From NCBI GenBank assembly GCA_951406725.2, contig OX597820.1, positions 26,226,001-26,290,000 on the forward strand: DNA of 64,000 nucleotides, in the 5' to 3' direction. The position numbers and the translations under genes were made by a program. The DNA comes from Octopus vulgaris. Its lineage: Eukaryota. The notes beneath the pieces were generated by a model that worked only from the letters and a program-made list of their open reading frames with translations, was not told the DNA's origin and searched no databases. Below, in pieces: positions 6,401-57,700 of the stretch (its first letter is position 1; each line of letters opens with the position of its first letter).

Positions 6401-9400
6401 AAAATTTCTGACAGGATCAGATGGTGAACACACAGAATAACTGTTGGCTTGCTGTATTCCCAAAACATGTACCAAGAATGATAAAAATCAAACATCCAGT
6501 CAACATTATGGTGTTTGAAGTGATCACTATTGATGGTGACATTATGCCTCCATTCATCTTCCCACTTCGCTTCAGACTCAACACGGAGGCCTACATCGAG
6601 TACCTGGAGGAGATAGTGCTGCCCTGAGTCAAGAGAGTGGCTGCTGGAAGACTCTATGTCTGACAACAGGACTCTGCACCATGCTACGCAAGCAGTAGAA
6701 CTCTGTCATGGCTGTCAGACAATTTCTGCAACCACATCACCCCTAACATCTGGCCACCTAACTCCCCAAACTGCAACCCCCTTGTGAGAAACCAATAAAA
6801 CTCTTTGTTACACCAAAGATGAACTGAAGGCAAGGATTATGACAGCATTCACCAACTTAAACAAAGAGACTGTCCAGAAGAGTTGCAGGAGATTCCAAAG
6901 TCATCTGGAGGCCATGGTTGAAGTGAATGGCAATTTTATTGAATTAATTTTCTCTTTAGTATTTCAAGATATTTTTATGTAATTTTGGTACATATATCTG
7001 TTAAAGTAAGATGTCAGTGTTATTTTCATTTTTGTGTAGTTTAGATGACAATTCATTCACTGCACCCTGCATACACACACACACACACACTTGCATGTAA
7101 GAGTGTATATGCTTCTGTGGATGAAATGACCGAATGAATACAATATTAGCCTACCAGCTTGTAGCATATGACTTTTTTTTATCTGTAGCATAGCTTTTGA
7201 TAGGTTATTGTGTAAGGTATTTAAATCACTTTGCCTCTGTGTAATTAATATCATAGGATTTGTACCAGACCTTCTTGGAATGTTATTGGGAGCAACTGAA
7301 TCTTGTGGTAAACATTGCTTTTATGAACCTCTTAAGCTGTGGCTCGTCAAGATTTGATCACATTTAAATTTTGATCTAACTGCGTCAGACTCAAATCTTC
7401 TTTAATCTATATTATTCATCTACTTTGTGGTGTGTTATGACAGCTCACTTCTTTTATTTTCTACGTACATTAACCAATGCCTGACAAATCAGTTATGTGG
7501 TCTCATAACATATTTTGAAATATGGCCTCTTAACCTGCTATAACTATATATCTACTTAACATAGACATAGCAGACAAATCTCTCTCATATCGCACCTTGC
7601 CTGTCTTACAAAATCAAGAGATGCATTGGATAATGTGATCTTAGATACACATTGTCTGATAACAAAGCAGGTGGTAACAACTGGAATACCTTTGATCATA
7701 GCCCTGCTCTTTCATAGAATGATCTGGTGCTAAACAACAACAGCAACCATCGCCTGTTTAATCCTCTTACCTTCTCAGTTTATTTACACTCAGTCTATGC
7801 ATGTTTCTGGTTTACATCATCGTTATCCTTTAATGTCTGTTTTCCATGTTGGCATGGGTTGGATACTTTGACCAGAGCCAACAAACTGGGGAGCTGCACC
7901 AGGTCCCGGTCTGATTTGACTTGGTTTCTACAGCAGGTTGCTTTTAACATAGCACCAGCATGAGTGTTTTTATGCGGCACCGACAAGAGTGTCACTTGCA
8001 CAGAACTCTTGTAAGCCAATCCTCGTCAGCAGAGAAAGTGGCCTTAACCCTTCTGCTGTGGAGGACAGGTATCTCAGTCTTTTGTCATCTCATCTTGAGG
8101 TCGTCCTTTAGTTTAAATGAAATATTTTCACCTGATATCATCATCATCACCTTAGTGTTCACTGTTCCTTTCTTGCATGGGTTGGATGAACAATTATTGG
8201 GTTGGCAAGAAAGTAATTTCAGTTTTATAGTGTGAAATAAAAATCCTTTTTTTTTTCTCTCTCCATACAAAGAATGAAATTTAATCCTTAATATGTTCTC
8301 CATTTTGTTCGATGAACTTTTGCCATCTGGCAACTTCATGATTCCGCACTCATAGAACTTCTGGTCCTTATCAGCCAAAAACTGAAGCAAGTGTGATTTC
8401 AGGTCATCATCATCATCGTTTAGCATCCGTTTTCCATGCTAGCATGGGTTGGACGGTTCAACTGGGGTCTGTGAAGCCAGAAGGCTTCATCGGGCCCAGT
8501 CAGATCTGGCAGTGTTTCTACGGCTGGATGCCCTTCCTAACGCCAACCACTCTGTAAGTGTAGTGGGTGCTTTTTTCATCATTATTGAAAAAGAATTTTG
8601 CAAACTTTGAAATAAATGGTAATCTGGTGGTGCAAGGTCAGAGCTATTTACTGGATTTGACATCACTTCCCAACCAAGCTCCAATAATTTTTCTTGAGTT
8701 AGCAAATACATGTGTGGTCTAGTGCTGTCATGTTGGAACACAATTCCTTTATGATTTGCCAATCCTGGCTGTTTTTCTTTTTGATTGCTTCCTCCAGTTT
8801 CATTAGCTGTTGACAGTAAACACCTGAATTGATTGTTTGGTTCCTTCGAAGCAGCTCAATATGCACAACACTTTTGTAACCCCACCAAATCGACAGCATT
8901 ACCTTTTTTTGCTGCTATAAGCTTTCAATGTGGTTTGTGCTGGTTCATTGCGTTTGGTCCATGGTCGATATTGATTAATGTTGTTGTAGACAATCCATTT
9001 TTCATTACCAGTGATGATTCGTTTAAAAAAAAAAAAAAGAGAGGTCAATTTCATTGCATTTGAGATGCCTATCGCAAATGTTGACTTGTGTTAAGTGAAT
9101 CTCATTCAGTTTATGTGGAACCCAAATATCAAGCTTCTTAATGAGTTCAAGACATTTTAAGTGATTTTCAGTTGTTGTGTGTGATACAATTAACCTCTCT
9201 GCAATCTCTTGCACAGTTATATGACAATCAGATTCAGTTATGGCTTTGATTCAGTCATCACCAACTTCAGTAGGTTGACCAGAATGTTGGTCATCTTTGA
9301 GTGAAATATCTCCAGAATGGAATTTTTGAAACCATTTCTGACATGTGCATTCTTTTAAACAATGAATACCATAAACTTCACATATCTCTTTGTGAGGCCT

Positions 9401-21028: not shown

Positions 21029-24000
21029 ATGTACAGTTGAAAATCCTTTATCTAAAATCTGAAATCTTTTGGAGTAAGAGAGGTGCCATAAATAGAAAAT
21101 TCCAGAAAGCACTCAGAAGGTCTCAAGGAAGCATACAGTTGTTATATATATGGTTATATTTACAAGTAAATATAAAAGCTTGAAGAAATGTGTAAGTCTT
21201 CTATTACCAATGTATCTCAAATGCAAAACCAACTATAAATCGTAGCTCATTGTGTGTGTGTGTGTTTTGAGCTACTACTTATAGCTGGATTTGTATTTAA
21301 TAGAAAACTTATATATATATATATCATCATCATCATCGTTTATTGTCCATTTTCCATGCTAGCATGGGTTGGACAGTTCGACCGGCATCTGGGAAGCCAG
21401 GAGGCTGCACCAGGCTCCAGTCTGATCTGGCAGTGTTTCTACAGCTGGATGCCCTTCCTAACGCCAATCACTCTGTGAGTGTGGTGGTTGCTTTTTATGT
21501 GCCACTGGCACAGTTGCCAGGGGAGGCTGGCAATGGCCATGATCGGTTGGTGCTTATATATATATATATTTACTTTTTCACTTGCAAGTATCCAATTTGG
21601 TTGGTTATAAGTTAAAGATTTACTCTGGTGTAATGGTGCATCATTGTCTTGATTACAATGAATGTGTTGTGTGTGGTCTTTGGAGTTGATCCCTATTACC
21701 GTCAGTCGGTTGTTCTATCTCTCTGGAAGTGGAGATGATTTCAAAAAATCCAAGAATATATCTTGTATGGTATTTAATACCATATAAGATATATTCATCT
21801 TTGTTGTTCAAAAATTAGCCATTGGCCACCCTGGTTTTTGTTTTCTTTTTCTTTTAGTACATTTTGTTTCATTTATGCAAATTACCTATGCTTTAGATGT
21901 ATTCTGCTCTTCTTTGTTTATGTGTAAACATCTTTTTCTGCTGGAGACAAGGCAGAGCAAGTGCTGAGATGTCATACCTACTGAGGTAAAAACAAATGTC
22001 CACAACTGTTCTCTTGTTTCCAGACAGTCAGACTGTCTTTTCTTTTCATGGCATTTCGGTTTTTGGGGAAATCCTTGACTCTTGAGATTATCTCCCCCTT
22101 CTCATTTGGTGTGGCCATGAATTACCACCAAGCAATTATTCTGCTTTCTCTGGAGACTAGAGCTGATTTCAATATATTCAAGATTATATCTTGTCTGGTA
22201 CTTAACATATCCTTTCTATGTCTTTGTCCAAATACATGCCTCTGGCCACTGTGAATCATTTCTCTTAGCTCATTTTCATTTCACTTATGTATAATTGTGT
22301 GTACACACATGCAAAATCATGTGCAATTGTGTGTGTGTATGCATACATACATGTATGTATATACTTAAACATATAATGTTTTATCCGGAAATTGTAGTTA
22401 TCAGTTGATGTACTATAACATTGCATTAAGATATAGTTGGTTGGTGTTTAATTTTCTGCTAGAATGGGTGTTAACTAATTTTTATTTGCCAATATCAAGT
22501 TCTGTCCTGAAGGTTTATTTGTTGGGGTTTTTTTTGTTTTTAAAACTAAAGCAATAATATTTCAGACTAAGTTTTTGTATTTTTAAAATTTTATTTTCAT
22601 TTTGCATTTTATTTGTCTGGATAAGAAGAAGAGCAGGCCATGTTGCTTCAGTTTCCATACCACAGAAGCGTTATTCATTTCCAGTTATTAATAATTATAT
22701 AACCATTATTGGATAGAACCCATAATATCAATCCAATATCTTTTCTATATCTAGTCTGTGACTATAGCTACGTCCAACATCATATCACTAGTGTCAGACT
22801 ATATTTTGATATTTCAGTGATGTGCTTTGCTTGATAGCGATATCAATTTTATCAAACTGCAGAATCAGTTGGTTTTCATTTGCAGTATCAGAGTACTGGC
22901 TGTTTTGAGATTTTAATCTTTTGATATAGGCTAGAGCAGTACCTTCTTATAACTGGTTTGGTATTTCCCAGTGTTAAATACAAATGCTGCTTATGTAACC
23001 TTTGCACCCCTCCTTCCTATTGGTGTTGATAAAGGCCAGTAATGCACTAGGCTTATATCTTATAAACTTTGGCCAGTACAAGCTAGCTCTATGCATGTTT
23101 GACCCTTTAGCATTCAGATTACTCTGTCAAACGTAATGTTTATTTATTCACATTGTTTTCAATTAACCAGGCATTATTTCATAGCTTTGAGATTTTGATG
23201 GTTTGATAGTTTATTTTTAGAATAGAATTGTAGGGTAGATGTGAGTGGTTGGATCTGACTGGTTTGAACTTAAAACGGATAGAACATTTAGGCTGGATAC
23301 ACCCAGTTTACATGCTAAAGGGTTAACAGAGGGCGATATTTTACAACTCATTTTATTGAAGATTGTTGAAGTAAATAAAGGCTTGAATCTTAAAATATCT
23401 GAAATCCTTCTATAGTTGTAGATTTTCTTACCTCTTCATCTACCATACACTGTCAGGCATGGCTGTGTGGTTAATAAGTTTTCTTTACACCCATCTGATT
23501 TTGGGTTCAAATCCATTCATCGCTTCTGTACAACACCTTGGGCGAGTGTCTTCTACCTCACCTTAATTTGACCAATATTTTGGGAATGAAATTTGATAAG
23601 CAGGAGTTACTTGTCTTCCTACAAGCAAAGCTTGTATGTTCAACTAGCTGGGCATTATAAGCCATCCAACCTCTGCTGGCATGGAAAAATGCAGATGTAA
23701 AATAAAGTTTTTGATATATTTTTCTCAGTGTATGTTAGTGAAGGATATAAACATTGATTGGAAAACTGAAAAAGAACCATGTTTTCTGAACAAAGTCCTT
23801 TGCAATATTTGCTTTACACTGAGTTACACTCCCTCCCTTGTCACTCTCATTATTGGATATACAATGGATAAGGGATTAAGGTCATTCAAAACCTGTAACC
23901 ACTGACATGGTTGTTCACGATTTGACAACTTATAGGTGTAGGCATGGCTGTGTAGTAAGAAGTTCGCTTCCCAGCCTCATGGTTCTGGGTTCTGTCCCAC

Positions 24001-30000: not shown

Positions 30001-33000
30001 CTCATGCACTACTGATACTCTTCAGCACAATGCCAGTTTTGTGTGAGCTGTTGTTATAGAAGGGATCAGCTTATCAACTTGCATTGTGTAATAGCTTCTA
30101 AATCACATCTTGGCTAACAACACTAGATAATGGTTGATAACAGCATACAACTAATAATATTAGATGACAGCAGCCAAGTGAGACCATAACCCGTGGCCTA
30201 TGGCAGGGTTGTAACCAGCCCACTTATGCATATCTTTCCTTCAGTGGACACTAAACTTGTGAAGACTTGGGGCAAGTGAAATCGAAGTCAAATCAAATTT
30301 GCAAGTTCGATGACTGGCACCCGTGCCAGTTGAGCGCTAAGAGCACCATCAGAGCGTGATTGCTGCCAGAGCAGCTGACTGGCTTCTGTGCCGGTGGCAC
30401 ATAAACAGCACCATTCAAACGTGCTCATTACCAGCATCGCCTTACTGGCACTAGTGCTAGTGGCATATGAAAAACATTCGAGTGAGGTCGTTGCCAGTGC
30501 CGCTGGACTGGCTCCTGTGCAGGTGGCACATAAAAAACACCACTTGAGCGTGGCCGTTGCCAGTACTGCCTAATTGGCCCTCGTGCTGGTGTCACGTAAA
30601 AGCACCCACTACACTCTTGGAGGGGTTGGCGTTAGGAAGGGCATCCAGCTCTAGAAACTCTGCCAGATCAGATTGGAGCCTGGTGCAGCCATCTGGTTCG
30701 CCAGTCCTTCGTCCAACCCATGCTAGCATGGAAAGCGGACGTTAAATGATGATGATGATGAGTCAACAACATCATACAATAAAATATTGAAATTGGTTTG
30801 TTATATAATATTTTAGATAATTGAGTAAATGTTAATGCTACGAGAAAGAGGCAAGGGCTGTGTATACTAGTGTAAAAGTTGAATATTTAGACCAGATGTT
30901 TAGGCTAAAAATTAGGGGTTGACTATTTATATAGATATTTCTTTAAAGGAAAGTGGGGAAATATTAGAGTAATTACAGTAACAATGTCAATAATTATCCA
31001 GTATTTACATCAAAACTTTGTAGCTCTTGTGTTTTATCTCCATCCCTCATACTCAATTTATTAACTTTGTCAAAGTCAAATTCATCAACAGTACTATGTA
31101 GGTAGCAGTGCTGAATTTTTGTCACTAATTCAGCACAGTCTAAGGCTGTGAATGTCAAATAGAAATTTGAATTACACTATAACTTTTAGAAATTTCAAAC
31201 ACAAAGGTCTATTCAAATCTTACAAAATCACACTGTTCATCATTATTGTCATCTTATCATCTCAATCAGCAGGCAGCTTTTGTGCAGTTTTCATTCTCTG
31301 CCAATGTGTTAAATCGTCTCGTTATATGCATCTTGTGCACTTGCCTTAAACTAGAAAGCTAAGTTCACTTTGTGCAATACAAGGAAAAATACCAGATTTT
31401 TAGGTTAAAAAAAAAAGTGAGGGTGAGTTTGATTCCTCTTCTCCAGAGATTTGAACAGCTCCATGAGTTACATATTTTCCTTCTTGATGATTTCCAAGTA
31501 CCTACTTCAGCAGCATCTTGCAAGATATTTGTTTTTGTCATGTGTGTGAAGTTAGTTCAGTATCTCATACAAACTTTCTCAAACCACTAACTTCTCTAAC
31601 AGCCACATAGTTGTCTTCTCAGTAACTTTCAGTTTGAATGACACCTGTATAATTGTCTTCCTGGGAAGCATATTTGCATAAAATAACAAATTTAAGGCCA
31701 AAACTACACAACTGTATTCTGCAAGTGTCACAAGGGAACTAGAATTAAGAGCTCACCTGTCTAGTGAGTCACTGATTCAACTTTAACCTGACCTTTGTAC
31801 AGTCTTTCAGACCTCTGTAGCTGGTAGAAAGAATGAAACAGCAAGATTTGGAAATTATAACATCACTGCATTGAGAAGGATTGCTTATCATTTAACTGGT
31901 CACACTGCTTCACGTTTGTTTATTATTATAAACCATAGGCTGATGAAGCATTGTGTACTGTTTATTGTGTGCATACATCAATGACTGATGCATCTGGGTT
32001 ACATCTTCAGTGATGTGCCTGGTATCATCAGGCGTTTCAGGTCTTTCAACATCATACACCCTCCTCCTGGTGACCCAGCAGGGGCTGATTAGACCCCAGC
32101 TTGTGTGCCTAGATGGCCAACTAGCTACCCCATGGCTCTCCTCTTTTGATCCACAGCCATCTTAAGGCCGTCTCTGCCGCATTTGTGGTACTGTGGATGG
32201 CCTTCCTCCTCACTCCCTCGATGCCCAAACTGCTGAAGGCTCTGGTCAGGGAATGGGCTGCAAAACCTCTGCATCCAATTGTTCAGAAATATGGTAATTA
32301 GAAATGGTGTGTCCACTAATTGCAGTTATTTGGATAATTGATGTGATGAATCCAGCCACCTGATGTTTTTGCGAACTGTACATCAAAATATATCAAAGAG
32401 GAAAATTTATTCTCTCATTGCAACATTTTATACATAAAAACAATCTTTTTTCCTGCGAAAAATGTAAGGTCAATTACCTCGTTTTCAGAGCAGTCCAGGG
32501 GAACTAACTCTTAGCAAATTATTTTGTAGATTTATATCCGTTATTTTGTTGTTGGTATATTTTAGCACTACAGTTGATCTCTTTCCTTGAAACGCATTGC
32601 ATCAAGTCTTTGTGAAATTTGCTTGGATAGGATACAAATTTATGACAAGTACATTTTCTCAGTTGTACCTTAAATAGATAGTACAACATTAAGAGACATT
32701 GAACATGGGCTTTTTTTTTGTTTTTTAAATCAGGTAATACCTATGTTATTCATGTTTCAGGAAAGACTATAGTAGAAAGATTTGATGTTATTAAGGTCAT
32801 TAATTGGTTGAATCCTCAGACCATCAGACAGAATGTCTTGCAGTAATTCATCTTACTCTTTAGTCTTTTACTTGTTTCAGTCATTTGACTGTGGCCATGC
32901 TGGAGCACCGCCTTTAGTTGAGCAAATCAACCCCAGGACTTATTCTTTGTAAGCCTAGTACTTATTCTATAGGTCTCTTTCGCCCAAACGCTAAGTTACA

Positions 33001-36000
33001 GGGACATAAACACACCAGTTTCGGTTGTCAAGCGATGTTGAGCAGACACACACACACACACACACATATATGTATATATACGACGGGCTTCTTTCAGTTT
33101 CTGTCTATGAAATCTACTCGCAAGGCTTTGGTTAGCCTGAGGCTATAGTAGAAGACACTTGCCCAAGGTACCACGCAGAGGGACTGAACTTGGAACCATG
33201 TGGTTCGTAAGCAAGCTACTTACCACACAGCCACTCCTACGCCTATATTAGGTCAACTTTCTCTATCATCCTTTTGGGGTTGATGGTGTTGACTAACTTC
33301 CTTCCTTTAAAATTGCTGTGCTTGTGTCTAAATTAGAAATACTAATTATTATGAAGAATAACTGAAATGTTGACAATGGCATGATTTTGAACCTCTAGCT
33401 CTTTATGGTCTAAGTTTAGATCCTGGTCGCCTTCGCGTTTCATTCCTCCAGGTCACTAGAATAAAGTGCCAGGTTCTTGTGTATAATGTACACTGACTTT
33501 TCTTTAGTATTAAGATATATGGGGGAAAAACTGAATAGATTTATTATAATTGCTGTATAAAATATTTGAAAATATTTACATATCCCTCTTTCTTTCGGAG
33601 AGGTACTGAGCAGCTATACACACACGGCAGTAACTTCCGCCTACCAAATTCAATCACAAAGCTTCGGTCGACTCGGGGCTATAGTGGAAGACACTTGCCC
33701 AAAGTGCCACGCAGTGGGACTGAACCCGAAACCATGTAGCTAGGAAGAAGCTCCCTAACCACACAGCCATGCGCCTACAATAGTTGTAATTTCCCGGAAT
33801 CATCTGTATTGTTGTTGTAGTCATCAACCTTTATTATATTCTAATCTTGTGTTTAAAAAAAAAAAGATAAATCTGTTTGAAATTTGTTTTATTTATTATT
33901 AATTACTTTTGTGAATGACTTTGTTCATTTGTTGTAGCCCCGAAAGAGAACCAACAAGAAGTTGAGTCCTGCTGCCCAGCTGGAACAAACAAAAGAAGGA
34001 TGTGTTGACTTGGAGACACCTGACTCCATTCTTGTGAACACTAACTTAAGAGTGAGTTAATTGTCTTTTAGCTTTGTTTCTTTGTCTTTTCATTTATTGG
34101 TTTCAGCCCTACTCGAAGCTCTTTATGTTCTGAGTTAAAATCCCACCAAAGTTCACTTTGACTTTCATCCTTTTGAGGTGAATAGAATAATAACAATTTA
34201 GCATGGATTGATGTAATTGACCACCCCTTCTCTCTAGGTTTGTCCTTGTGCCAAAATTTTAAACCATTATTCAAGCACAAGTTATCAAAAAAACAGAATT
34301 TCTTTGTTTTGCTTCAAGGATGTGAGATAACATTTCCGTTCCAAGTTGTCATGTTTGTATTGGACAACTCTACAGAAAAGATTTCTCTGTCTTTTCATCA
34401 GTTTATTTATGATTGGTATATGAATATTATTTCATAACTATTTTTTTTATATATCTATATCAGCTTTAGGTTTACATAATGTTTTAAATTTTCTCTCAAC
34501 ATATACTCACCATCTTTCACCTTTTAGCTTTCAGATTAGTTTGTCAAATGTAATGCTAATTTATTCAAATTGGTTTGAATTAATCATGCAGTATCATGCA
34601 GCTTCAAACTTTCAATGATGTGAATGTATATATTTTTATGAAGACATTGCATGGTAGATGAAAACAGCCAAATCTGGTCAGTTTGAACATAAAACATGTA
34701 GAATGTTTGGCCCTCATACAACCAGTTTAAATACTAAAGGGTTAAATAAAAACCCCTTTCCCATATTTGAAGTCCCAGCCCTAAGAGGCCATATCACTTA
34801 AAGATAATCTGAGCATCATTAATAAATTGCTCAGTCAAATGATCTTTTCATAACTTACCCTATGCCATAACTGTACACAAGTATAGAGACTCAGCAACAA
34901 GATATTGTTTTCTTTCTTCTAATATGTCATCCATTTTACACCTGTGGAATATACCATAATCTGTTCTGTATACATTAAACCAATCAGGATCCCTGTTTTA
35001 CAAGATGATTTTTAATTGTCTTTTTCAGGCATTAATTAATAAGCACACATTCCAGCTTCTTCCAGCAGATTACCAGTATCGGTTGATTCAGCTTTTACCT
35101 GAGTGTGACCGGTTGGTTGAAGGGTCCAGGTAAGAAATAATAGTGTCTTTTTTTGTTTTTTTAGTTTTTGAATTTTTTTTTTTTGTGTGCACTTTGTTTA
35201 AACCAAGATAACAATTTAGGAGACATAGCCAAGCTGCACTGATAACAACTGACAGTAATACAAAGTGACAATTTAGAGCAATTGTTCTCAACCGGGGTCC
35301 ATATGAGGTTTGGGGTGGGAGGTGGGGCATCCATGCATGCAAAATAGTAAATTGCATACACACAGTAGTATATTATAGGTCCATGAAAACATTTTGACTT
35401 AGATGTATTTATTGGGAAAAACAATTAACTTTCTTTCTCTGACGTTTTACATAGTTCAACCTACACAAGTTAATGTGTGATGACCAAAATAGGAATTTCA
35501 AAAGAAGTATCTATAAAACCAGGTTTTAAACATCAAGAGGCTAAGGGGGTCCACCAGACTAAAATTGTAATGAAAGGGGTCCATAGGTAAAAAAGTGATT
35601 GAGAAATACTGATTTAGAAGAACTGTTAATTTGTTTGGCAGTTGTGCTAACTGGTTCTTATTAAGATACATTGTCTCTGTTAGCTGTTAAAAGTGTTTAG
35701 TTGAAGAACCCACCAAGAAATATATTTTTTGAAAATGGTAACTTTATTTCAATGATGAGAGCATTCGTTTTTGGCTACACTGGCATAGGTTTGATGGATA
35801 CTTGTCCAAAGCAGTGTGTTTCTAGCATGCACTAGATTGCAATTATATAAACAATAACTCTGAGCACCTTTTCAAACTCAACCTGTCTAACACCCGTGGA
35901 CATGCTTACAAAGTCAGAAAACAGCACAGCTCCCATGACTTTTGGAACCATTTTTTCATGCTAAGTGTTGCTGAAGTATGGAACAAACTGCCAGCATCAG

Positions 36001-39000
36001 TTGTTAGTTGTCGGAGCACTGCATCCTTCAAAACTTCCATGCTTCCTGAGATTTACCAACACTCATACACTGTTCACTGTTGACAAGTTGTGGTGTACCT
36101 GAGCACTGTATACAATAATTTCATTATTATTATTATTTTTCTACTTCTGTGCAGGAGAGGAAGAATGCTATTGCCAAGGGAGATTATTAACTTTAAAGCC
36201 ATTTGTTTGTTGAAAGAAATTTTCTATGCCACTATCTTTTTCTTTTATACAGAATGAGTACAACTGCTTTAAATAATGAGTTCTTTTCCAAAGCCTGTCA
36301 AGAATGGAAAGAAAGATTGGCAGAAGGTAATATTTATAAGTCGTTCTACTCTTGCTTTTATTGTTTTGGGACAAGGAGGTTTTTTTTTTAAATACTATAT
36401 TTGTATGTAAAGCACTTTTGCATATAATGTGCATTCATGAAATAAAAACTATCTCATGTACTGTTCCCTCTCTACTGTGTGCATGCAGAGGCATATAGTT
36501 TTTGCAACCAATGCACCAAAAAAAATCATATACACAAAAGTTTGTCTAAAATAATGAATGAATAATTATATTTGTATATTCAATGCATAGTGCAAGATTT
36601 TTGTACATGCAAATATTAGAAGCAACACTGTTCTTGTGTATAATGTACACTGACTTTTCTTTAGTATTAAGGTATATGGGGAAAAAACTGAATAAATTTA
36701 TTATAATTTGCTGTATAAAATAATTGAAAATATTTACATATTATAAACAAAACAAAAAGGAAATTTGAAAGTGACCTTCAAACTACAGTAAGCACTCGCC
36801 ATATTGCGGCTCACCTATTGCACCCTCAGTACATCACAGATTTTTTTGGCTAATTTATGTAAATTTATATCGTGGACTCCTCAGTATATTGCAGGTTTCT
36901 GCGGCTGATTTGTATTTATTTTTTTTTTTATTTTAATTATTTCTGTGGTAGAATAAGCATTTTCACACCTAAAAATTAATAATTAAAAATACAGTACAGT
37001 ACTGCACTGCATAACACATTAATTAAAATGTATTAAGAGAAAATACATAGTGTACCCTAGATGAGTAAACAAAAAATCGCACATACTGTATGGAAAATGA
37101 AACTTGGGAGGTGAGTGTGTATTGTTTTGCATTTATGATAAAATAAATATATACAAATTATAAAAATAATATAAAAAATACAGGACAGTACTGTTTCTAC
37201 TTTGTGGATTTTCACCTATCACAGGGTGGTTTTGGAATGTAACATCCGTGATAGTTGAGGGATTATTGTATACTAGTATAACTTGCAAAAAGTATTTGCT
37301 GTGTAGTCTACATTGTGTAAATCACCAATGTTTTTTCATGGAAAATAAAAGTGCCTAAAATAAATGCAGAATCTATTAATATTTGGAATGTTGTATGTAA
37401 TTTTAAAATTCTGGGTATAAAGAATTTGATTGATTGTTGGAGCATGTGTTTTTACATTGAAATGTTCTCCTTACTTACTGACCTGTTAGCATCAACCCTG
37501 TTTTTGTTATTGACAGGAATCACTTGATATTTAAACAAAATTAACATTATTTGAAAACTAAGAAATTTGTGCCCAGACAATTAAATTACTCTTAAATTGA
37601 TTTCTTATGTAGGCATAATGCCAAAAGTTTAAAAGGAAATAGACTGTGACTGGCCTTGTAGACTGTCTTAGCATAAATAGTTTAAATGAAATAAATTATT
37701 AGCAATTTGAAGCAGCTCACCAGAAGATCATCCTTTTTTTTTTAAAACTTAATTACATGAAACTGGCATTACATTACTGTATTCATTTTTCGCCATTTTC
37801 TTATCCTAATTTGCAGGAGAATTTACACCTGAAAACCAACAACGCTTGAAGCAAGAAGAAGAGAAAGAACAGACGAAGATGGATCCTTGGAAGGTAAGTT
37901 ATTATTTAATAAGATGACTGATGGTGTAATTCAGTAACTGTTTCATGATAAGTGAGAACTGTTTAAAAAACTCCTTGTTCTTTTTATAAATCTGGTGGTT
38001 GCTTGTAGAGCTGTCTGTAATTGAACAAGTTAGCACTGCAACTTCTTCACATCTTGGGAGTTACTGAGTCTAACAGAAACCTCTTTTGGCTGAGGCACCC
38101 TGTACTCTTTGTAATTTTTTTTTTAGCATTTCAGGAATAGATATTATGAAGGATTATGCTTCCACTAAATTTCAGTTTCTTGGAACATAGAAGGAATATA
38201 ATGGTTAAAATTTGCTAATGATTTGAGCATTTTCTTCCTTTGTATTTGTACATTGGCTAGATAGATGTGTATTTTACCATGAGTTCACACATGTCGAGTT
38301 TGTCGTTATCTGGGTGTAACACAGATATCATTTTATTGTTGGTGTTGTGCATATTGGCACAAAGATATAGAAGTGTATGAATCGTTTGAATAACAAAGCT
38401 CTCAGAATACTATTGGTCCCAATTTTATCCATAATAATGGGATAGCGGGTGTTGTTGATGTTCACTGTATCTTAATACTTTTAATACCAAACCCACATAA
38501 GAATGTCCCTTGTTCTATAGTACAAAAGTCTTATTTTAAAGTGATCTAAATTAAAATATTCATTCAAAATTTCTTGTTAATTTGTTCCAAACCTCAGCTT
38601 AGTGATAAAAATGTTATTTTACTGAATTCCTTCATTATCTTTAAAATGAACTGAAACAAGAGCAGTGTAATTTCAACAGAAATTTGGTAACAAGAGTTAA
38701 AAGAGTGTAATAGCGCAAACCATTTAATCTGATAGATTACTATTTCTGCTGTTTCTCAACTCATTTATTGCATAACAATATCAGTTGACCTTTCTAGTTG
38801 GCAGATTCTTAACTTGTAATTATAACAACATGACATTGTTCTAACTGTAAATCCTATTGTAAGCAACTTCAAAGTGAGAAAATGAGAGGGAAAAATGAAC
38901 TTGAGCGAAAATTTATTTTTCATTGATTTTTGCCTCAGAAATATTGCTTGTTAAAATACTTCCATCTACTTAAGATTTTAATGATTCTCATGGTCTCTTT

Positions 39001-42000
39001 GTTTTTCTTTTCAGATGAAGCATTTTGAACAGGTGTGGGGGCAGAGGTGAGTGTGTCATTTTATCAACTACTACTACCTGAGTAGGGTGGCATAATTAAA
39101 TTATTGTAAATAATTAGAAATAATAGGATCCAATTATTCCATATACCATATTGTTAAAGTAATGTGGTAAAAATGTGTAACATCATCCTCATAACACAGT
39201 TGACCTGGGTTCAATTCCCAACATGGGAATTTGTTATTCATCCCCATAACCTAGCAGTTCAGCTGTGGATCAACCCTAATCTGCAAACTGTGTATTTTTT
39301 GAATAATGTTACTTCAGTAACCCTTTAGAAAACCCTATTTTGGCTGCTTGTATTTGTGATTGTATTCATTTGGTTACTACCCAAGATTAATTACTGTAGG
39401 CAGGGGTTTGGCATGAAAACTGAAGACAGTGAGCTTAGCCCTTCTGATGACTGAGTGCTCAAACTAGCACATTACTGCACCAGTGCCAGCAAAGTCATCA
39501 TCACCATTTTTAACATCCATTTTCCCATGCTTGTATGGCTTTGATTGGAATTTATTTAGACAGATTTTCTATGGTCTGATGCCCTTCCTGTCACCAGCCC
39601 TCGCTTGTTTCCAAACAAGGTTATATTTCTGCATGACCAGGCATGTTCTCGAAGAATATTGGAAATGAATGATACTCCTTGTATGACAGTGAGATTCACT
39701 TACAATTATCATGCGGTGTCAAAGCAATAAGACACAAACATACACATTCATACGTACACACACACATCATCATCATTGTTTAACGTCCGCTTTCCATGCT
39801 GGCATGGGTTGGACGATTTGACTGAGGACTGGTGAACCAGATGGCTGCACCAGACTCCAATCTCATCTGGCAGAGTTTCTACAGCTGGATGCCCTTCCTA
39901 ACGCCAACCACTCCTAGAGTGTAGTGGTTGCTTTTATGTGTCACCGGCACAAGGGCTACTCAGGCAGTACTGGCAATGGCCACACGCAAATGGTGCTTTT
40001 TATGTGCCACCTGCACAGGAGCCAGTCCAGCGGCACTGGCAATGACCTCGCTCAAATGTTTTGTTCACGTGCCACCAGCACAAGTGCTAGTAAGGCAATG
40101 CAGGTAACGATCATGCTAGAATGATGTTTTTAATGTGCCATCGGCACGGAGGTCAGCTTGTTGCTCTGGCTACGACCTCACACAAACACACATATGTATC
40201 ATGAGCTTCTATTGGCTTTCATCAGTCCACCCTATCGTGGAAGACCCTTGTCCAAAATGCCATGTAGTGGAGCTGAACCTGAAACCATGTGGTTGGAAAG
40301 TAAACTTCTTAAACATAGAACCATACCTTCATCTTTAAAAGTTATACATTTCTGAAATTAAACACATAAAATAACTTTAGATGCAGTCCAAGCTTGTTAC
40401 TTTTTTTTTTTTTAATTAAATATTTCATTGTAATTTTTGTATATCCAAAAATCTGAAATACTTCTGTTTCTTTTTTGCAGAAATCTCACAGATGTTCCCA
40501 AAGCTACAAGTTCAACTCCTATTTCTCGGCCACGTTCACCTCAAGTTACCTCTCCAATGCGTCGCAAAACAAAGCGAGTTTCCAGTTTATTCAAACCACG
40601 TTCATTGGCTGTGACTGCTGGTGGTGGTAGTAGTGTTAGTAGTAGTAATAGAAGTAGTAGCAGCAGTAGTAATAGTAGTAGCAGCAGCAGTAGTAATAAC
40701 AACAGCAGCAATAGTAGTGGTAATGGAAGTAGAAACAGTAGCAACAGCAATTCAAAGTTACCACTTGTTGTGACCTCAGCTGCTGCAATGTCCAGTTCAG
40801 AAGCTGTGGCAGGTGTGAAACCAGCAACTACAGTATCTGTTTCCGTTACCACTACTACCTCAATTACCACCTCTTTGAGTGACCAAGTGATCAGCAGTGT
40901 CCCCGAAGTGATCAAAACATCACAGGTGGACGACCGACTACCTTCGCCTGGTTCGCAGGACATTGCCAGCAACCTGAAACGCCCCTTATATGTGGCTACT
41001 GACCTAACTGGTGAGTTGGGTAGTTCTGCTGATATCGACAGTGTAAGCCCTTCTAAACGTCAAAAGTATTCTCCCAGTCAGAAATTTGGCAGTACGAGGA
41101 TTCTTGCCCAAACCAAAGCGTCGACTGAAAGCAATCGACAACCAAAAACCTTACATTCATCCTGGGGAGGCAGTCCTCAAGAGAAACAGGCTTCTCCTGT
41201 AACAGCATCCAACACTCCTTTAATACACCCACCTCGCCTTCAGACTGCTTTACTGCAAGTATCCAAATCCTCACCCCCTGCTGCAGCTAGCAGTAGTAAC
41301 AGTAGTACTAGTACTGCTGACAGTTGTGTCACCGATGCTTCTTCTAAAAACTCTGCCCCTACAAATCAGTCCCGCGTACTTGCTCAACTCCAGGTACCCT
41401 CTCAGTTCTTGGCTGCCACGGTATTGGTAAAGTCTCAACCGAAATCAAAACCTGTTGTTCGAAACAGCACTAATTCGAGTCAGTCCAAGACGACGTCGTC
41501 CGTGACAGCTGCGACATGTACCGAACCAGACACGAGTTCACCGTCCAACGAGTATCGTCAGAACGTTTTTGCATTGTTTCGGAAGTTGCGGAGCAATAAC
41601 AATAACGACAACAATGATAACAGCAGCAGCAGCAGCAGCAACAGTAACTCCAGTTCTAGTGATTCAGGTACTGTAACAGCTTCTGCTACGTCACCAACAC
41701 TGACGACGACAACAACAACAGCAACAGCAGCAGCAGCGACGACGACGACCACAACAGCAGCAGCAGTGGCAGCAACATCACCTATCAGTTTTGTCAACAG
41801 CAACAGCCCGAACAGCAGCAGCAACAGCAGCACCACCACCAACAACAACAACAAGGACAGTTCAAATAGTAATACAAACAAAACTGAAAGCATGCCAGCA
41901 TCAGATAGTAGTCTGGCACCATCACAGAAGAACAATGATGCTGTGAATCTGCAACGTTCGCATGAGATCTGCCAAGCTGTGTTTGAGAGAAGCCGAAGTA

Positions 42001-46255: not shown

Positions 46256-46290
<35 letters not shown>

Positions 46291-46293
<3 letters not shown>

Positions 46294-46610
46294 CGTTTTT
46301 GGATTTGGTTTGCAAGATTCTTTATATGAGTTCGTGTGTTGAAGCATATTCTGTTGTGTCTGGGTAGAGTAATTTTCTTCATGTGTCTTATAATGTAACA
46401 CATTCACCGGTAAAATTTCCACTTATTATTTTTATTTTCCTAAAATTTCCGTTGTGTCTTGCAACTCTCAAGAGTCAAGACTATTGAAAAGGTTTCAAGA
46501 TGCAACGGAAATTTTAGGAAAATAAAAATAAGAAATAAGTGGAAATTTTACCGGTGAGTGTGTTACATTATAAGGCACAAAAAGAAAATGACTCTCCCCA
46601 GACACAACAG
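46291..46610. repeat. Palindromic interspersed element; second copy 57137-57410
   Basis: Arms 46351-46465 and 46491-46610 are reverse complements; both copies have TA-rich flanks. Confidence 0.85.
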
Positions 46611-46761
46611 TATATATATGTGGTTTTATTTAAACTGAATGTTTATTGAGGTGATATGAATTTCACACAATTGCAATCTTCAGGTGAGAAGCTCAAGGTG
46701 ACGTGAAATTGAAGTCACAAGACAAACACTCACTTTATATTTATTTACATGTCTCATAAGT

Positions 46762-46815
<54 letters not shown>

Positions 46816-49800
46816 GTGCATACACACACACATAGCAGCAGCAGCATTTAACATCCACTTTTCCATGCTTGCATTGGTTGGACAGAGTTTATTATAGTAA
46901 ATTTTCTTTTGACTAAATGCTCTTCCTGTTGCCAACCCCTACCAGTTTCCAAACAAGGTGATATTTCCTCATGGCCGGACAAGTTCTCACAGAATATTGC
47001 AAATGAGTGGCTGCTTGTTTGACAATGATACTCGTTTACAGCTACCAGTCAATGTCGCATACACACATTGTACAGTGGGCTTCTTTCAGTTTCCGTCTAC
47101 CAAATCCACTAGCAGGGTTGTTGTAGACAACACTTCTCAAGGTGCTACACAATGGGACTGAACCCAGAACCATGTAGTCATGAAGCAGACTTTGTGTGTG
47201 TGCATGTGTGAGAGAGAGAGAGAGTGATATTTCATATCACTAGCGATTGTTTGTTTCAAAGTTTCACCATTAAAACTGGCTTCTCAAACTTTGTTGAAAC
47301 TTTGAATAAACAATTACAGTCACTATTCATATGAATTATTAATTCGACTCTACAGACAGTAATTGAATCCTTTATTCATTGCATATTCAATATCAATTAC
47401 ATCAGCCGATTAAACAAACATTCATATATATGGACTGGCTCCTGTGCAGGTAGCATGTAAATAAACACCATTTGAGCGTGGCCGTTGCCAGTACCACCTG
47501 ACTGGCCCTCGTGCCAGTGTCACGTAAAAGCACCCACTACACTCTCAGAGTGGTTGGCGTTAGGAAGGGCATCCAGCTGTAGAAACTCTGCCAGATCAAG
47601 ATTGGAGCCTGGTGCAGCCATCTCGTTCGCCTGTCCTCAGTCAAATCGTCCAACCCATGCTAGCATGGAAAGTGGACGTTAAACGATGATGATGATATAT
47701 ATTATATAATTCGTTTTGACTAGTATTGTTTGGTGACTTCCAGTGAATATGCTATCATGCGGAACTTCAAATCCCAGTTAAAATGAGTTTTATAATTGGG
47801 CTCTACTTTTAGCATTGAGTAAATGTGATATTCTTAAATTTAAAAAAAAAATAACAAAAGTGTGTGATATGGTACTTTGGCAGTGAATGAGGTAGAATGG
47901 CTTTTACAAACAAAATATCTTGAGGTGTTGGTTTTATACCAGTTTACAGATGTGGAGGCATTTAGGGTGTTGGATTCTTGATTGTAAGATTGAGATTTTT
48001 GATTTCTGCACCAGGTGATGCATTGTGTTCCTGAGCAAAACACGTTATTCCAGGCCACTCAATTGGCAAAAATGAGTAACTCTGCAATGGTTTGGTGGCC
48101 CGTCCAAGGGCCGGAAATACATGTACCATGGAAACCTGGGAAATCTGCTCTTTGAGTCTATATGACTTGGAAAGAATCATCAGTTTACAGATACTTCCTA
48201 GTCGCTCCATATTACCAGAAATAGTTAACCAGTGATTAGCATGTTGGAAACTGCTAGCTAAATGCTCTCTTGTCCACCGCTAAGTACAGGAGTTTGGGAT
48301 TGATAAAAGAAGGTCCCGGTCAAGTTTTATGGTCAGTGTAATTGACTAACACTCTCTCCTTGCTCCCCCCTTAAATTACTGACCTTGTGTTGTGCTTATA
48401 TTAGAAACATTATTTGCTTAATGGCCATATAATACTAAGAGAATAATAAAAACACCTAGTGGTGTTACAAGAAGTCAGGCAGCGAGCTGGCAGAAATGTT
48501 AGCACGCTGGGCGAAATACTTAGTGGTATTTCGTCTGCCGTTACGTTCTGAGTTCAAATTCCACCAAGGTCGACTTCGCCCTTCACCCTTTCGGGGTCGA
48601 TAAATTAATTACCAGTTACGCACTGGGGTCGATGTAGTCGACTTAATCCCTTTGTTTAGCCCCTCATGGGCAATAAAGAAATAAGAAGTCATTGTAGCAT
48701 TCAGATCAGATTGCTCCTGGCAAGAATGTACTGTTTGCCTGTGACTGTACACTCTCAGTTGGTGAACTTGATTGAACAATGCCTATATGAAGGTTTTTAT
48801 GATTGCCAAAATTTCCTTTCATTTTATTTTTATACATAGTGACAGTTGCAGGCTAATGCTGAAGTTTGTATAAATTGAACCTGCAATTGTTGGATATATT
48901 TTCAAATTTAGTTTGAACTATTTTCCAGTTTGTCTACATTGTTCAGGACAGTATGGATATAATGGGGCTGAGAAGAGTTTCATGAATCTCAAGCTTAGTA
49001 CCTGTGTGAGAAAAATTATAATTATTTACAAGGACAGTTGTTAGGGTGCTTGGATTTGTTTAGCCACATCCCGTTACATTCTGAGTTCAAATCCCGGTGA
49101 AGCCAACTATGTCCCTCCAACAAAATCTGTGGCCTTTAACCTGATATTATAAATCATTATTTGAAACCTAATGGTTCGCATTGATAAAGCCACATTTCTT
49201 TCTTCTTGATTTCATTTTGTGAGTTGCCAATATGGTCCATAGCAGCATATTTTAACTCTTCCGTTAAGGAAGGAATCATGCCTGCTTAAAACTTTTGATA
49301 CTTTTTGCTTTGGTTCTCAGTTGTAACTATTTTGTTTTGTTTATGTTGGTCATTAAGAAAAGCATGACTATCACAATCTCATTTCCTCTTCTCTGTGAAC
49401 CTGAGGACCTGTAACCTATAAAATGGAATAACATTTTCATACTTTCTCTACATTTCATTTTTATTTATTATTATTATTAAGATGCTGAAAGGCGATGCGC
49501 TGCCAGAATCGTTAGCACGCCGGACGAAATGCTTAGCGGCATTTCACGTTCTGAGTTCAAATTCCGCCAAGATCGACCTCGCCTTTCATCCTTTCGGGGT
49601 CGATTTAATTGACTGCCCCCCCTTTTTTTTTCAGGCCTTGTGCCTATAGTAGAAAGGATTATTATGGTTATTGTTACTGTTAAGTGGCAGAATTGTTAGT
49701 GTGTAAGACAAAATGTTTAGCTGCATTTCATCCAGCTCTTTATGTTCTGAGTTCAAATCCTGTTGGAATCCACTTTGCTCAATCTAATCAACCTGATCCC

Positions 49801-54725: not shown

Positions 54726-57700
54726 TTTGTGTCTACAGAGATTGTCTACTATCCTGTATGATAGTATTCTCATTTCTGTGTCTGCTAGCGAGAAAGACAA
54801 ATTAAAAGGAGTGCATGCAGATAGATTAACAGTTGTGTTCTCGTGCTCATGACAGGACTTACCTAAGATTAAGAAGATAGCCATGCTTATTTGTTGGTAC
54901 CGAATTACCAAAACAGAGCGACTAATATTCGCTGGTGTATTTATAACGTTCGTAATTTAATTAGGTCAACCGAAAGCAATAGGATTATTCACTATATCAG
55001 GCTTGACCCGTGAATGCCTTGAAGAAGGCCTAAGAGGTCGGTTTTTTCTCATTAACTTCTCAGTACAGAAAGGCTAAGACAACAGCTTGAGAACTTCCTT
55101 GACAATGTGGAGAAATGTGGATTCGCTTTTGAATCATAGCTAAGGTATTCTGTAGCTGTTCGCCGCATATTTATTTGTGTGTGTGTGTGTGTAAGGTATT
55201 AGCGATGGAAGTAGTATACTCTTTACTCTCTTTTACTTGTTTCAGTCATTTTGACTGCGGCCATGCTGGAGCACTGCCTTTAGTAGAGCAAATCGATCCC
55301 AGGACTTATTCTTTGTTGTTGCCGAACCGCTAAGTTACGGGGACGTAAACACACCAGCATCGATTGTCAAGCGATGTTGAGTGGGGGGACACAGACATAA
55401 ATACATATATATGACGGGTTTCTTTCAGTTTCTGTCTACCAGATCCACTCACAAGGCTTTGGTCGGCACGACGCAATAATAGAAGACACTTGCCCAAAGT
55501 GCCACGCAGTGGGACTGAACCCGGAACCATGTGGCTGGTAAGCAAACTTCTTACCACACAGCCACTCCTGTACCAAAAATCAATATTTGTATTCAGCTTA
55601 GCGTGGATGTCTTGTTGGAACACCGGAGGCCGCGTTATTAGCCTTTAGAGATCCGTTCATATAGGCACTTGGTGCATAACAACACACACATATATCGTTG
55701 TAGATGAGAATTGTTTGATTTCAGTCTACTAAACACCATCAGTGTGTGTGTGTGTGGGGGGGGCATCTCCGGTCACTACGTTCCAGACCAATCTCGCTGT
55801 TACGATATAAATCAGGCTGAAACACTGCAGTGTCGCAAACTCTTTCCCCTCAATCATTCGAATGTGTTGTGAACATTGACCGACAGGAAAAGTTGTTCTC
55901 TGCAGACAAAATACACCAGCGATAAGCATGTTCACGTTCGAATCGGCCGGAACGTATTAAGAGTAAATATGTACGTCATTGTTTTGATCATCACTGTTCT
56001 CCTTGCATATGATCAATTACCATATACAGTGAGTTCTCTGAAAACCCTTCATCTTTTGATAGTATTTTGTCCAAATCTAAAAATCTTTTAACAAAAATAT
56101 TAATAAATACGCGCCGAAAGTGTAACAAAGAAGAGGTAGACCAGTAATCGCAAAATTTAGAATGGGAAAAATCACGTCTTTTGTAGTTTCAATGGAGTCA
56201 AAACAATAAATGCTTTCTCGTTAGTGTTTTTTTTTTTTCTACGCAAGCTGGAGTGGCTGTGTGGTAAGTAGCTTGCTTACCAACCACATGGTTCCGGGTT
56301 CAGTCCCACTGCGTGGCACCTTGAGCAAGTGTCTTCTACTATAGCCTCGGGCCAACCAAGGCATTGTGAGTGGATTTGGTAGATGGAAGCTGAAAGAAGC
56401 CCGTCGTATATGTTATTGCGTGTATGTTTGTGTGTCTGTGTTTGTCCCCCTAGCATTGCTTGACAACCGATGCTGGTGTGTTTATGTCCCCGTAACTAGC
56501 GGTTCGGCAAAAGAGACCGATAGAATAAGTACTGGGCTTACAAAGAATAAGTCCCGGGGTCGAGTTGCTCGACTAAAGGCGGTGCTCCAGCATAGCCGCA
56601 GTCAAATGACTGAAACAAGTAAAAGAGTAAAAAGAGTAAGCTCGCTCGTTCACAGACGTACTTCAAGACTGTTCTCTTATTTCCAGATTATAATCTTGTT
56701 CTTTTTTTTTTGATAGCACGAGAGTTTTGTGGAATTTCTTGAATCTTGAGATGATCTTCTCTCCTCAAATGCAGCTGGTTTTAATTACCATTTGGTAATT
56801 ATGATACATGTTCTAGATGCGGAGATCATTTTAATAAACCAAGAATTTTTGTTGTATGGATTTTGGCATATTGGTATTTGTCTAGGATTAAATAAAGAAT
56901 CTTATTGAAAAACAACCTCTTTATTCACCAATTTAAGCTAACTTTATGATATCTAGTAAACGCGATAAAATTTATTGAAATGAACTTTTGAAAAATGGCA
57001 TAGATTACAAAAAAAAAAACATGAGCACATATTTAATACGATAGCTTCAAGGGAAATAACTCTTGCAAGTATTCCCCTTTAGAGTGCCTTCCCTTTAATA
57101 AAAAATTGATTTTATTGGAATATAACGTATGTATATTTCGTTTTGGGTTTTGGTTTGCAAGATTCTTTATGTGAGTTCGTGTGTTGAAGCATATTCCGTT
57201 GTGTTTGGGGAGAGTCATTTGCTTTTTGTTCCTTATCATTTAACACACTCACCGGTAAAATTTCCACTTATTTCAAGACTATTGAAAAGGTTGCAAGACG
57301 CAACGGAAATTTTAGGAAAATAAAAATAAGAAATAAGTGGAAATTTTACCGGTGAGTGTGTTAAATTATAAGGCACCAAAAGAAAACGACTCTCCCCAGA
57401 CACGACAGAATGTATGTATATGGTTCATATATATATAGAAAACCACATTAAAAATACAAATCCGAAACCAGGTAAGACAGAAAAAATGGGAAAAGAGAAA
57501 CAAAGAAAGAAAAAAAGAGAACACACATCACTTCAACACCAAGTATCTCAATTGGTCGCACACCACAAGGTTCAACGGACCCACTGAAACAATTTCTTCA
57601 ATTTTTTGCGTTACTGAATACAATAGTAATGAAATATTTAATTACGATTCAAATCCTGCCAAACTCAACCTTACATTTTATCCTACCAAGGATGATAAAA

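Follow-up and report, generated by a model that had tools for sequence, protein, structure and literature searches.

We identified a hammerhead-like RNA motif in the 3′ untranslated region (UTR) of a HERO-like retrotransposon without long terminal repeats (non-LTR), on the minus strand of a 64,000-nucleotide stretch of Octopus vulgaris DNA (assembly GCA_951406725.2, contig OX597820.1, positions 26,226,001 to 26,290,000; called the window below, with positions counted from its first letter). Judged from the alignment of protein-selected relatives, the motif is a real, clade-wide RNA structure, and by strand order and connections it belongs neither to hammerhead types I-III nor to type-SGC. We propose that it is probably a conditional self-cleaving hammerhead in a new topology. 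Its helices, core letters, kink-turn signature and perfect junction between the closing helix P0 and the hairpin Ph are shown by comparison among the relatives.

The element and the site in the window

The minus-strand interval 31965-32278 (approximate, with loose ends) is the 3′ end of a 5′-truncated, decayed element, and the only copy within the window. Copies of the same family, taken from public contigs, set its limits: matching ends at 31965, and further open reading frame (ORF) sequence continues past 32277/32278. The name HERO follows an earlier, sequence-only reading of this DNA; as the assignment is by domains, including the reverse transcriptase (RT), and by host range, we write "HERO-like". 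The context claimed by that reading is supported by a broken frame (32124-32282) with 76% identity to fish retrotransposon protein P0017 (E = 4.9e-15), about 65 nt past whose stop the motif lies, and by full-length relatives from fish, lancelet and bivalve. These encode a single ORF of about 1000-1100 amino acids with RVT_1, zf-RVT and a PD..E endonuclease motif (the last found by eye), a layout and host range that agree with the available portions of two published accounts of HERO. The features, all on the minus strand, are as follows.

31965 to 32278, minus: decayed HERO-like non-LTR retrotransposon, 5′-truncated, 3′ end only (limits from family contigs; single copy in the window)
32124 to 32278, minus: C-terminal remnant of the RT / restriction-like endonuclease ORF (76% identity to P0017)
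32102 to 32109, minus: 5′ strand of closing helix P0, damaged here (4 bp in the window)
32077 to 32101, minus: hairpin Ph, loop TAATCA at 32091-32086 (family palindrome TGATCA)
32072 to 32076, minus: stem II 5′ strand from G10.1 (32076), upstream of block S (89% paired across the alignment)
32062 to 32070, minus: stem IV 5′ strand (32070-32066) and non-bulged kink-turn strand with GA at 32063-32062
32049 to 32061, minus: block S, comprising stem III 5′ strand, U16.1 (32056), A17 (32055) and stem I 5′ strand (32054-32049)
32055/32054, minus: predicted cut within block S
32030 to 32043, minus: block G, comprising stem II 3′ strand (32043-32039), GAAA (32038-32035) and stem III 3′ strand
32018 to 32029, minus: kink-turn bulge (32029-32027), GA (32026-32025) and stem IV 3′ strand (32022-32018)
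32004 to 32016, minus: block C without its stem II arm, comprising stem I 3′ strand (32016-32011) and CUGAAGA (32010-32004)
31994 to 32003, minus: P0 3′ strand directly past A9, damaged here (family variants at 31998-32000)
31975 to 31991, minus: small terminal hairpin with a TGTAT motif at its end, near the element 3′ end (pairing by eye)

The strands listed by the sequence-only reading are all present: GGGTGT (32061-32056), A17 (32055), TGATGT (32054-32049), GACCT (32043-32039), GAAA (32038-32035), ACGCC (32035-32031), ACATCA (32016-32011), CTGAAGA (32010-32004) and CTGGGTC (32078-32072). As it claimed, stems I and III each have 6 bp in the window copy, and the S-G-C order holds in the window and in the relatives.

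A covariance model trained on 32 loci that exclude the family of the window copy gave one match in the 64 kb, at minus-strand positions 31994-32080 (roughly calibrated E = 1.1e-5), and in other loci it matched the sense strand only. Searched against Rfam 15, neither the window nor a set of 20 loci reached the gathering threshold of any family; three weak matches to box C/D snoRNA families (E = 1.3-3.6) were treated as chance.

Relatives carry the motif downstream of the ORF

Relatives were fetched by protein alone, from an alignment of 20 C-terminal protein fragments, and comprise the best 80 of 260 metagenome loci plus 5 genome-collection loci (cited by L numbers). The ORF end was present in 78 of these 85 loci, 63 of which had at least 200 nt downstream; ORF identity across loci was 39-89%. 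Viral contigs contained no relative by DNA pattern or by protein. A strict descriptor required U, GAAA and CUGANGA in order, with stems I and III of at least 3 bp each and stem II not used. Within the first 330 nt past the ORF it was passed by 44/63 loci, as compared to 0/63 on the opposite strand, 0/63 in ORF sequence and 7/3150 shuffles. When the criteria were relaxed and all of the downstream flank was scanned, 9 of the 19 strict misses proved to have the motif, four of them 400-700 nt past the ORF end, and the covariance model added L072, bringing the S-G-C core to 54/63 loci. The check on family-wide conservation proposed with the sequence-only reading thus came out in favor of the motif.

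These counts bear on the explanation that the motif is a chance resemblance in a decayed repeat, which we regard as scarcely credible. A loose S-G-C descriptor does find 1.35 sites per shuffled 64-kb window, and the lack of an Rfam match would fit; against this, the core recurs in 54 of 63 relatives chosen by protein, on the sense strand only, and the model built without this family matches this one site in the window. Sites of this quality numbered 0 in 20 shuffles of the window.

Four loci, L081, L082, L083 (with the full motif) and L084, are HERO-like fragments on short contigs of bacterial assemblies and are most likely animal DNA contamination.

Core letters and stems I-III

For covariation we aligned, by sequence only, the window copy and 41 loci (n = 42), one for each 90% cluster of 50 passing loci; the register of L049 was set by hand. 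Stems I-III are 93.3% paired overall, compared with 36-44% in slid registers, and contain 188 double changes compared with 51.8 in shuffles. By stem, pairing is 97.5% (I), 89.0% (II) and 93.4% (III), and variable stem pairs changed type 2-16 times each on the ORF-protein tree. The covariation predicted for stems I and III is therefore found across the family, with many double changes, well above shuffles.

The core letters C3 U4 G5 A6 N7 G8 A9 and G12 A13 A14 A15.1 are intact in the window. Among 58 loci the core varies only at C3 (two U) and G12 (two A), 49 of the 58 having been filtered on these letters; U16.1 is present in 57/58. Positions outside the filter are informative. N17 is A in 19, C in 19, U in 20 and G in none, and among 41 loci placed on the ORF tree it changed 17 times; N7 is free, and 15.2/16.2 is C-G in 54 and U-A in 4. 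In nine loci outside the model drawing N17 is likewise never G. The cleavage triplet that the sequence-only reading placed between stems III and I is thus borne out. As far as the alignment goes, the motif is hammerhead-like at every core position tested, but without continuity of block C.

The true stem II pairs with an upstream strand

The sequence-only reading drew stem II from the strand past CUGANGA and put its poor pairing down to decay of this copy. Across the alignment that strand is 53.9% or 47.3% paired in its two registers, compared with 56% in a slid control. A side remark in the same reading, that the upstream CUGGGUC could pair with GACCU, turned out to describe the true stem II: it is 89% paired, with double changes in 4 of 5 pairs, and reaches at least 5 bp in 36/42 loci compared with 12% for swapped partners. 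On the ORF tree its pairs changed type 8, 8, 8 and 3 times. The poor downstream pairing is not decay, because the partner of stem II lies upstream.

The 5′ strand of stem II starts at G10.1, approximately 19-21 nt upstream of U16.1. The 10.1-11.1 pair is G-C in 27 loci, G.U in 6 and other in 9 (G10.1 with C or U at 11.1 in 33/42). A9 runs into P0 rather than stem II, and G10.1 lies 64-77 nt upstream of it, so that A9 is not joined to stem II directly or through the 1-2 nt typical of a hammerhead. From these alignments the chain is opened between A9 and G10.1, and the motif is not a plain type-SGC. A plain type-SGC with stem II formed by the strand past CUGANGA is accordingly most improbable: the family of the window copy does have a G one base past A9 that could pair with 11.1, but this strand gives 0-1 pairs in most families, does no better than the slid control and forms P0 instead.

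In L039, L042, L043 and L064 stem II is present and the 10.1-11.1 pair is missing or shifted; L042 and L043 are also without a standard kink-turn. In the window, 32096-32091 in the 5′ arm of Ph can pair over 6 bp with the 3′ strand of stem II (listed as 32096-32091 versus 32076-32072). The minimum free energy (MFE) fold of the window prefers this alternative, which also occurs in L001, L002, L004 and L008 and is possibly a switch or a misfold.

Stem IV, a kink-turn and the P0/Ph junction

The rearranged architecture claimed by the sequence-only reading stands in its S-G-C core; stem IV, the kink-turn, P0 and the palindromic hairpin had been missed. Stem IV joins the strand past the 5′ strand of stem II to the strand before the 3′ strand of stem I, and is thus, as in type-SGC, a helix that joins the other arms of stems I and II. 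It has at least 5 bp in 35/42 loci, compared with 39% for swapped partners. A kink-turn signature, with C helix, 3-nt bulge, tandem G.A/A.G and NC helix, separates stems III and IV in 32/42 loci (the window included) and 17/26 families, compared with 2.6% of shuffled linkers; it recurs in 7 of the 9 loci outside the model drawing. The 5b-9b pairs are formed in 27-32 of the 32. The 3b.3n pair obeys the ion-folding (self-folding) rule given in the available text of PMC4382518 in 26/32, where 53% is expected from the margins. Known kink-turns, in the portions of PMC5061560 and PMC4382518 covered, likewise have a canonical helix, a 3-nt bulge and tandem G.A/A.G; in the present family the 3b.3n pair is mostly of the self-folding kind. 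The kink-turn described here is known from its signature, and no kink-turn within a hammerhead is reported in those portions. Reading the signature as box C/D was rejected by eye, because the bases past GA keep no box C.

The strand past A9 forms the closing helix P0 with upstream sequence, with at least 7 bp in 28/42 loci compared with 12% for swapped partners. P0 begins right past A9 in 25 of these 28, and hairpin Ph fills the gap from P0 to G10.1 exactly, giving a perfect junction, in 23. In the nine loci outside the model drawing P0 reaches at least 9 bp in six; stem II is not independent evidence there because it was part of that scan's score.

The loop of Ph is a 6-nt palindrome in 25/42 loci, compared with 5.6% in ORF windows (TGATCA in 17, TGGCCA in 7), which involves a double change between the two palindromes, and six further loci have a GACG tetraloop. 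Such palindromic loops serve as kissing signals in retroviruses, and GACG loops invite the same comparison. A fold that forms solely as a strand-swapped dimer, two RNAs joined through these loops with one cutting the other, would draw on the loops, their double change and the difficulty of placing three mutually crossing helices in one chain; dimeric metazoan hammerheads are known from Penelope-like elements and a newt satellite (PMC4209133, available portions). We consider such an obligate dimer rather unlikely. The short conserved linkers, the kink-turn and the perfect junction suggest a compact monomer, stem III has a full 5-6 bp unlike dimer-dependent minimal hammerheads, and 12/42 loci have neither a common palindrome nor a GACG loop.

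Relation to known ribozymes

The nearest known system is type-SGC, or HRIMA-1, described by Eckert et al. 2023 (PMC10085705; statements here refer to the portions available). It shares the S-G-C order, the short link between stems I and II, a helix tying these stems and the core letters. Type-SGC RNAs with the same stem I/II tie do cleave, at 0.007-0.13 per minute. The present motif differs in that block C is in two pieces, with the 5′ strand of stem II upstream of block S and with P0 and a hairpin between A9 and G10.1, and in that the kink-turn connects both strands of stem IV to stem III. Because block C is interrupted, we do not file the motif as type-SGC. Eckert et al. assumed this block to be uninterruptible. 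Non-circularly permuted hammerheads have so far come mainly from metatranscriptome and metagenome contigs, and the same portions report none in the genomes of known organisms except one bacterial type-GCS candidate and do not mention HERO or fish; the present motif, known from sequence alone, lies in animal DNA, in a retrotransposon 3′ UTR.

Hammerheads of types I/II/III, including those of Penelope-like elements (PMC4209133) and viroids (PMC1636495), share CUGANGA, GAAA, NUH, the G10.1-C11.1 pair and an association with retroelements. According to the available portions of these papers they are circular permutations with a three-way junction, and a single extra nucleotide at 9/10.1 has natural precedent; here the insertion at 9/10.1 amounts to two helices, the order is S-G-C rather than a cyclic S, C, G, and no Rfam match is found. 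The ribozymes of R2 and other non-LTR elements that resemble hepatitis delta virus (HDV) ribozymes (PMC7650587 and PMC13725137, available portions) are self-cleaving motifs carried by restriction-like-endonuclease elements and may release the unit from a co-transcript. They belong to another class and sit at the 5′ end, whereas the motif described here, with predicted cleavage, lies inside the 3′ UTR, upstream of the element 3′ end. We found no description of it in the literature searched (including the available portions of PMC3088659, PMC9004415 and PMC10294476), a search that lay outside most subscription journals and Repbase.

Proposed mechanism

In one RNA, with a and b for the 5′ and 3′ strands, the order would be P0a - Ph - IIa - IVa - (IIIa, NUH, Ia) - (IIb, GAAA, IIIb) - IVb - (Ib, CUGANGA) - P0b. 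This topology results if the original ends of a type-SGC are joined through the kink-turn and a new opening is made between A9 and G10.1. The kink-turn would bend stem IV back so that this stem links the tips of stem I and stem II, substituting for a loop I-loop II contact. P0 may stack on Ph and, with stem II and the core, make a four-way junction holding A9 beside G10.1. Stacked the other way, the RNA would be inactive, and loop-loop dimerization of Ph or protein binding could set this switch. The predicted cut falls 3′ of N17 (equivalent to 32055/32054) and would be slow or conditional. Because P0 and stems II, III and IV all bridge the cut, the product would be nicked and re-ligatable.

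Both sides of the cut are in register in every integrated copy seen. Because both halves are kept, the template of reverse transcription must have been uncut, re-ligated or jumped, and cutting would be slow or conditional. The same retention would be expected of a non-cutting, hammerhead-shaped scaffold bound by an element or host protein to select the 3′ end of the template, and the 3′ UTR is the usual site of template recognition in non-LTR elements. The break between A9 and G10.1, without precedent in the literature covered, and the family-level deviations at position 3 and at 10.1-11.1 also fit a scaffold. We nevertheless judge it unlikely, if a little less so than the obligate dimer, since at each position the variation is what hammerhead catalysis allows (A, C or U about equally often but never G at N17, an unconstrained N7 and covariation of 15.2-16.2) among elements with ORFs 39-89% identical, and 17 changes at N17 would not be expected of a pure protein site.

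Several observations weigh against a self-cleaving hammerhead. With both sides of the predicted cut kept in every integrated copy seen, a cis-cleavage of high efficiency would mean loss of the template. Because the strict filter already selected for the core letters and for the first 3 bp of stems I and III, the argument from their conservation is to some degree circular in 49 loci, and loci that are related do not count as independent. The absence of G at position 17 might serve folding instead of catalysis. The near-identical pair L022:2215-2297 and L029:2087-2169 has U at position 3 with G8 kept, a family-level deviation; L039, L042 and L043 are without the 10.1-11.1 pair. The kink-turn is missing in 10/42 loci, mostly on one side of the tree, and the loops count here too, 12/42 being of neither kind. 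Nested MFE folds, a method that pseudoknots lie beyond, never give stems I and II together, and competing local hairpins appear. In the portions of the literature covered, A9 and stem II of a hammerhead are never separated by more than 1-2 nt. Finally, 9/63 loci have no full motif: L007 is truncated, L028 has lost an internal segment, L056 and L062 are decayed by eye, and L057 and L063 are probably too short, judged from the motif position in their sister L044; in L040, L073 and the distant L084 no motif was found downstream of the ORF.

Given cleavage, two roles may be considered, weakly inferred and at about even chances. Cutting may free single units from read-through or head-to-tail transcripts, the function served by the 5′ ribozyme of R2, or it may split the ORF from the tail, with cut RNA going to translation or decay and uncut or re-ligated RNA serving as template. 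Of 46 loci with 500 nt or more of flank, 12 have another HERO-like ORF head-to-tail downstream (two as weak matches), and with such neighbors a 3′ ribozyme would serve to release the next unit. The next unit starts 50-100 nt past A9 in L006, L011, L012, L018, L024, L025, L039 and L061, and L019 and L025 share one contig. Units arranged in this way are of different families, and the next unit begins with a conserved 5′ UTR motif; the arrangement suggests self-targeting insertion. The most complete version of the proposal is doubtful: an active hammerhead outside the six presumed permutations, folded by the kink-turn and gated by the four-way junction, with Ph as a kissing-loop dimer signal, conserved clade-wide, whose reversible nick decides between translation and reverse transcription.

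The window copy and other features of the window

The window copy has all its core letters and its kink-turn. Elsewhere it is damaged: only 4 bp of P0 remain, an A.A mismatch interrupts stem IV, the 10.1-11.1 pair is a G.U and the palindrome of the loop is gone. The copy itself is probably inactive. Base counts in family contigs (summed contig depth over the best-supported 40 of 87 variant rows) show that A at 32068 is private to this copy, family contigs having U (798/798 depth in X1). At 32090 the palindrome-restoring base accounts for 455/520 depth in X1; at 32039 (11.1), U in the window and C in most family contigs, the restoring base accounts for 822/1537 depth in X1. N17 is often C in family contigs (975/1390 in X1, 600/2346 in X16, 0/29 in X10). 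A DNA contig of X1 resumes at 32054 after 90 skipped bases; we did not count this joint as a trace of cutting because related copies vary at 32055 and an alignment would be expected to stop at such a site; it is probably an alignment break. AATAAA at 31966-31961 was not counted as part of the element because it is located at or beyond the end of family similarity.

The TGTAT motif at the base of a small hairpin occurs in the window (31975-31991) and in 22/44 loci, often 20-30 nt past A9; near the element 3′ end, it is possibly a priming or protein-binding signal. Other dispersed repeats are abundant in the window, including palindromic copies resembling miniature inverted-repeat transposable elements (MITEs). 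Repeat pairs include 8404-8575, 21312-21563, 30365-30763, 39762-40170 and 47431-47708, and also 32852-33238, 55217-55569, 56250-56640 and 46282-46625. An open frame on the plus strand (35826-36083) presumably resembles the 3′ end of a CR1/L2-type LINE ORF.

Implications

If the family motif cleaves, it adds a topology to the hammerheads, the first non-circular one in animal genomes within the reach of our search, and places a ribozyme inside the 3′ UTR of a restriction-like-endonuclease clade whose known ribozymes are 5′. The kink-turn would then solve the geometry between stem III and stems I-II left open by Eckert et al. (PMC10085705, available portions), and the palindromic loops would suggest RNA dimerization signals in non-LTR elements. 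Descriptor searches for ribozymes would have to permit breaks within blocks held to be unbreakable. It is the design of the family, rather than the window copy, that counts.

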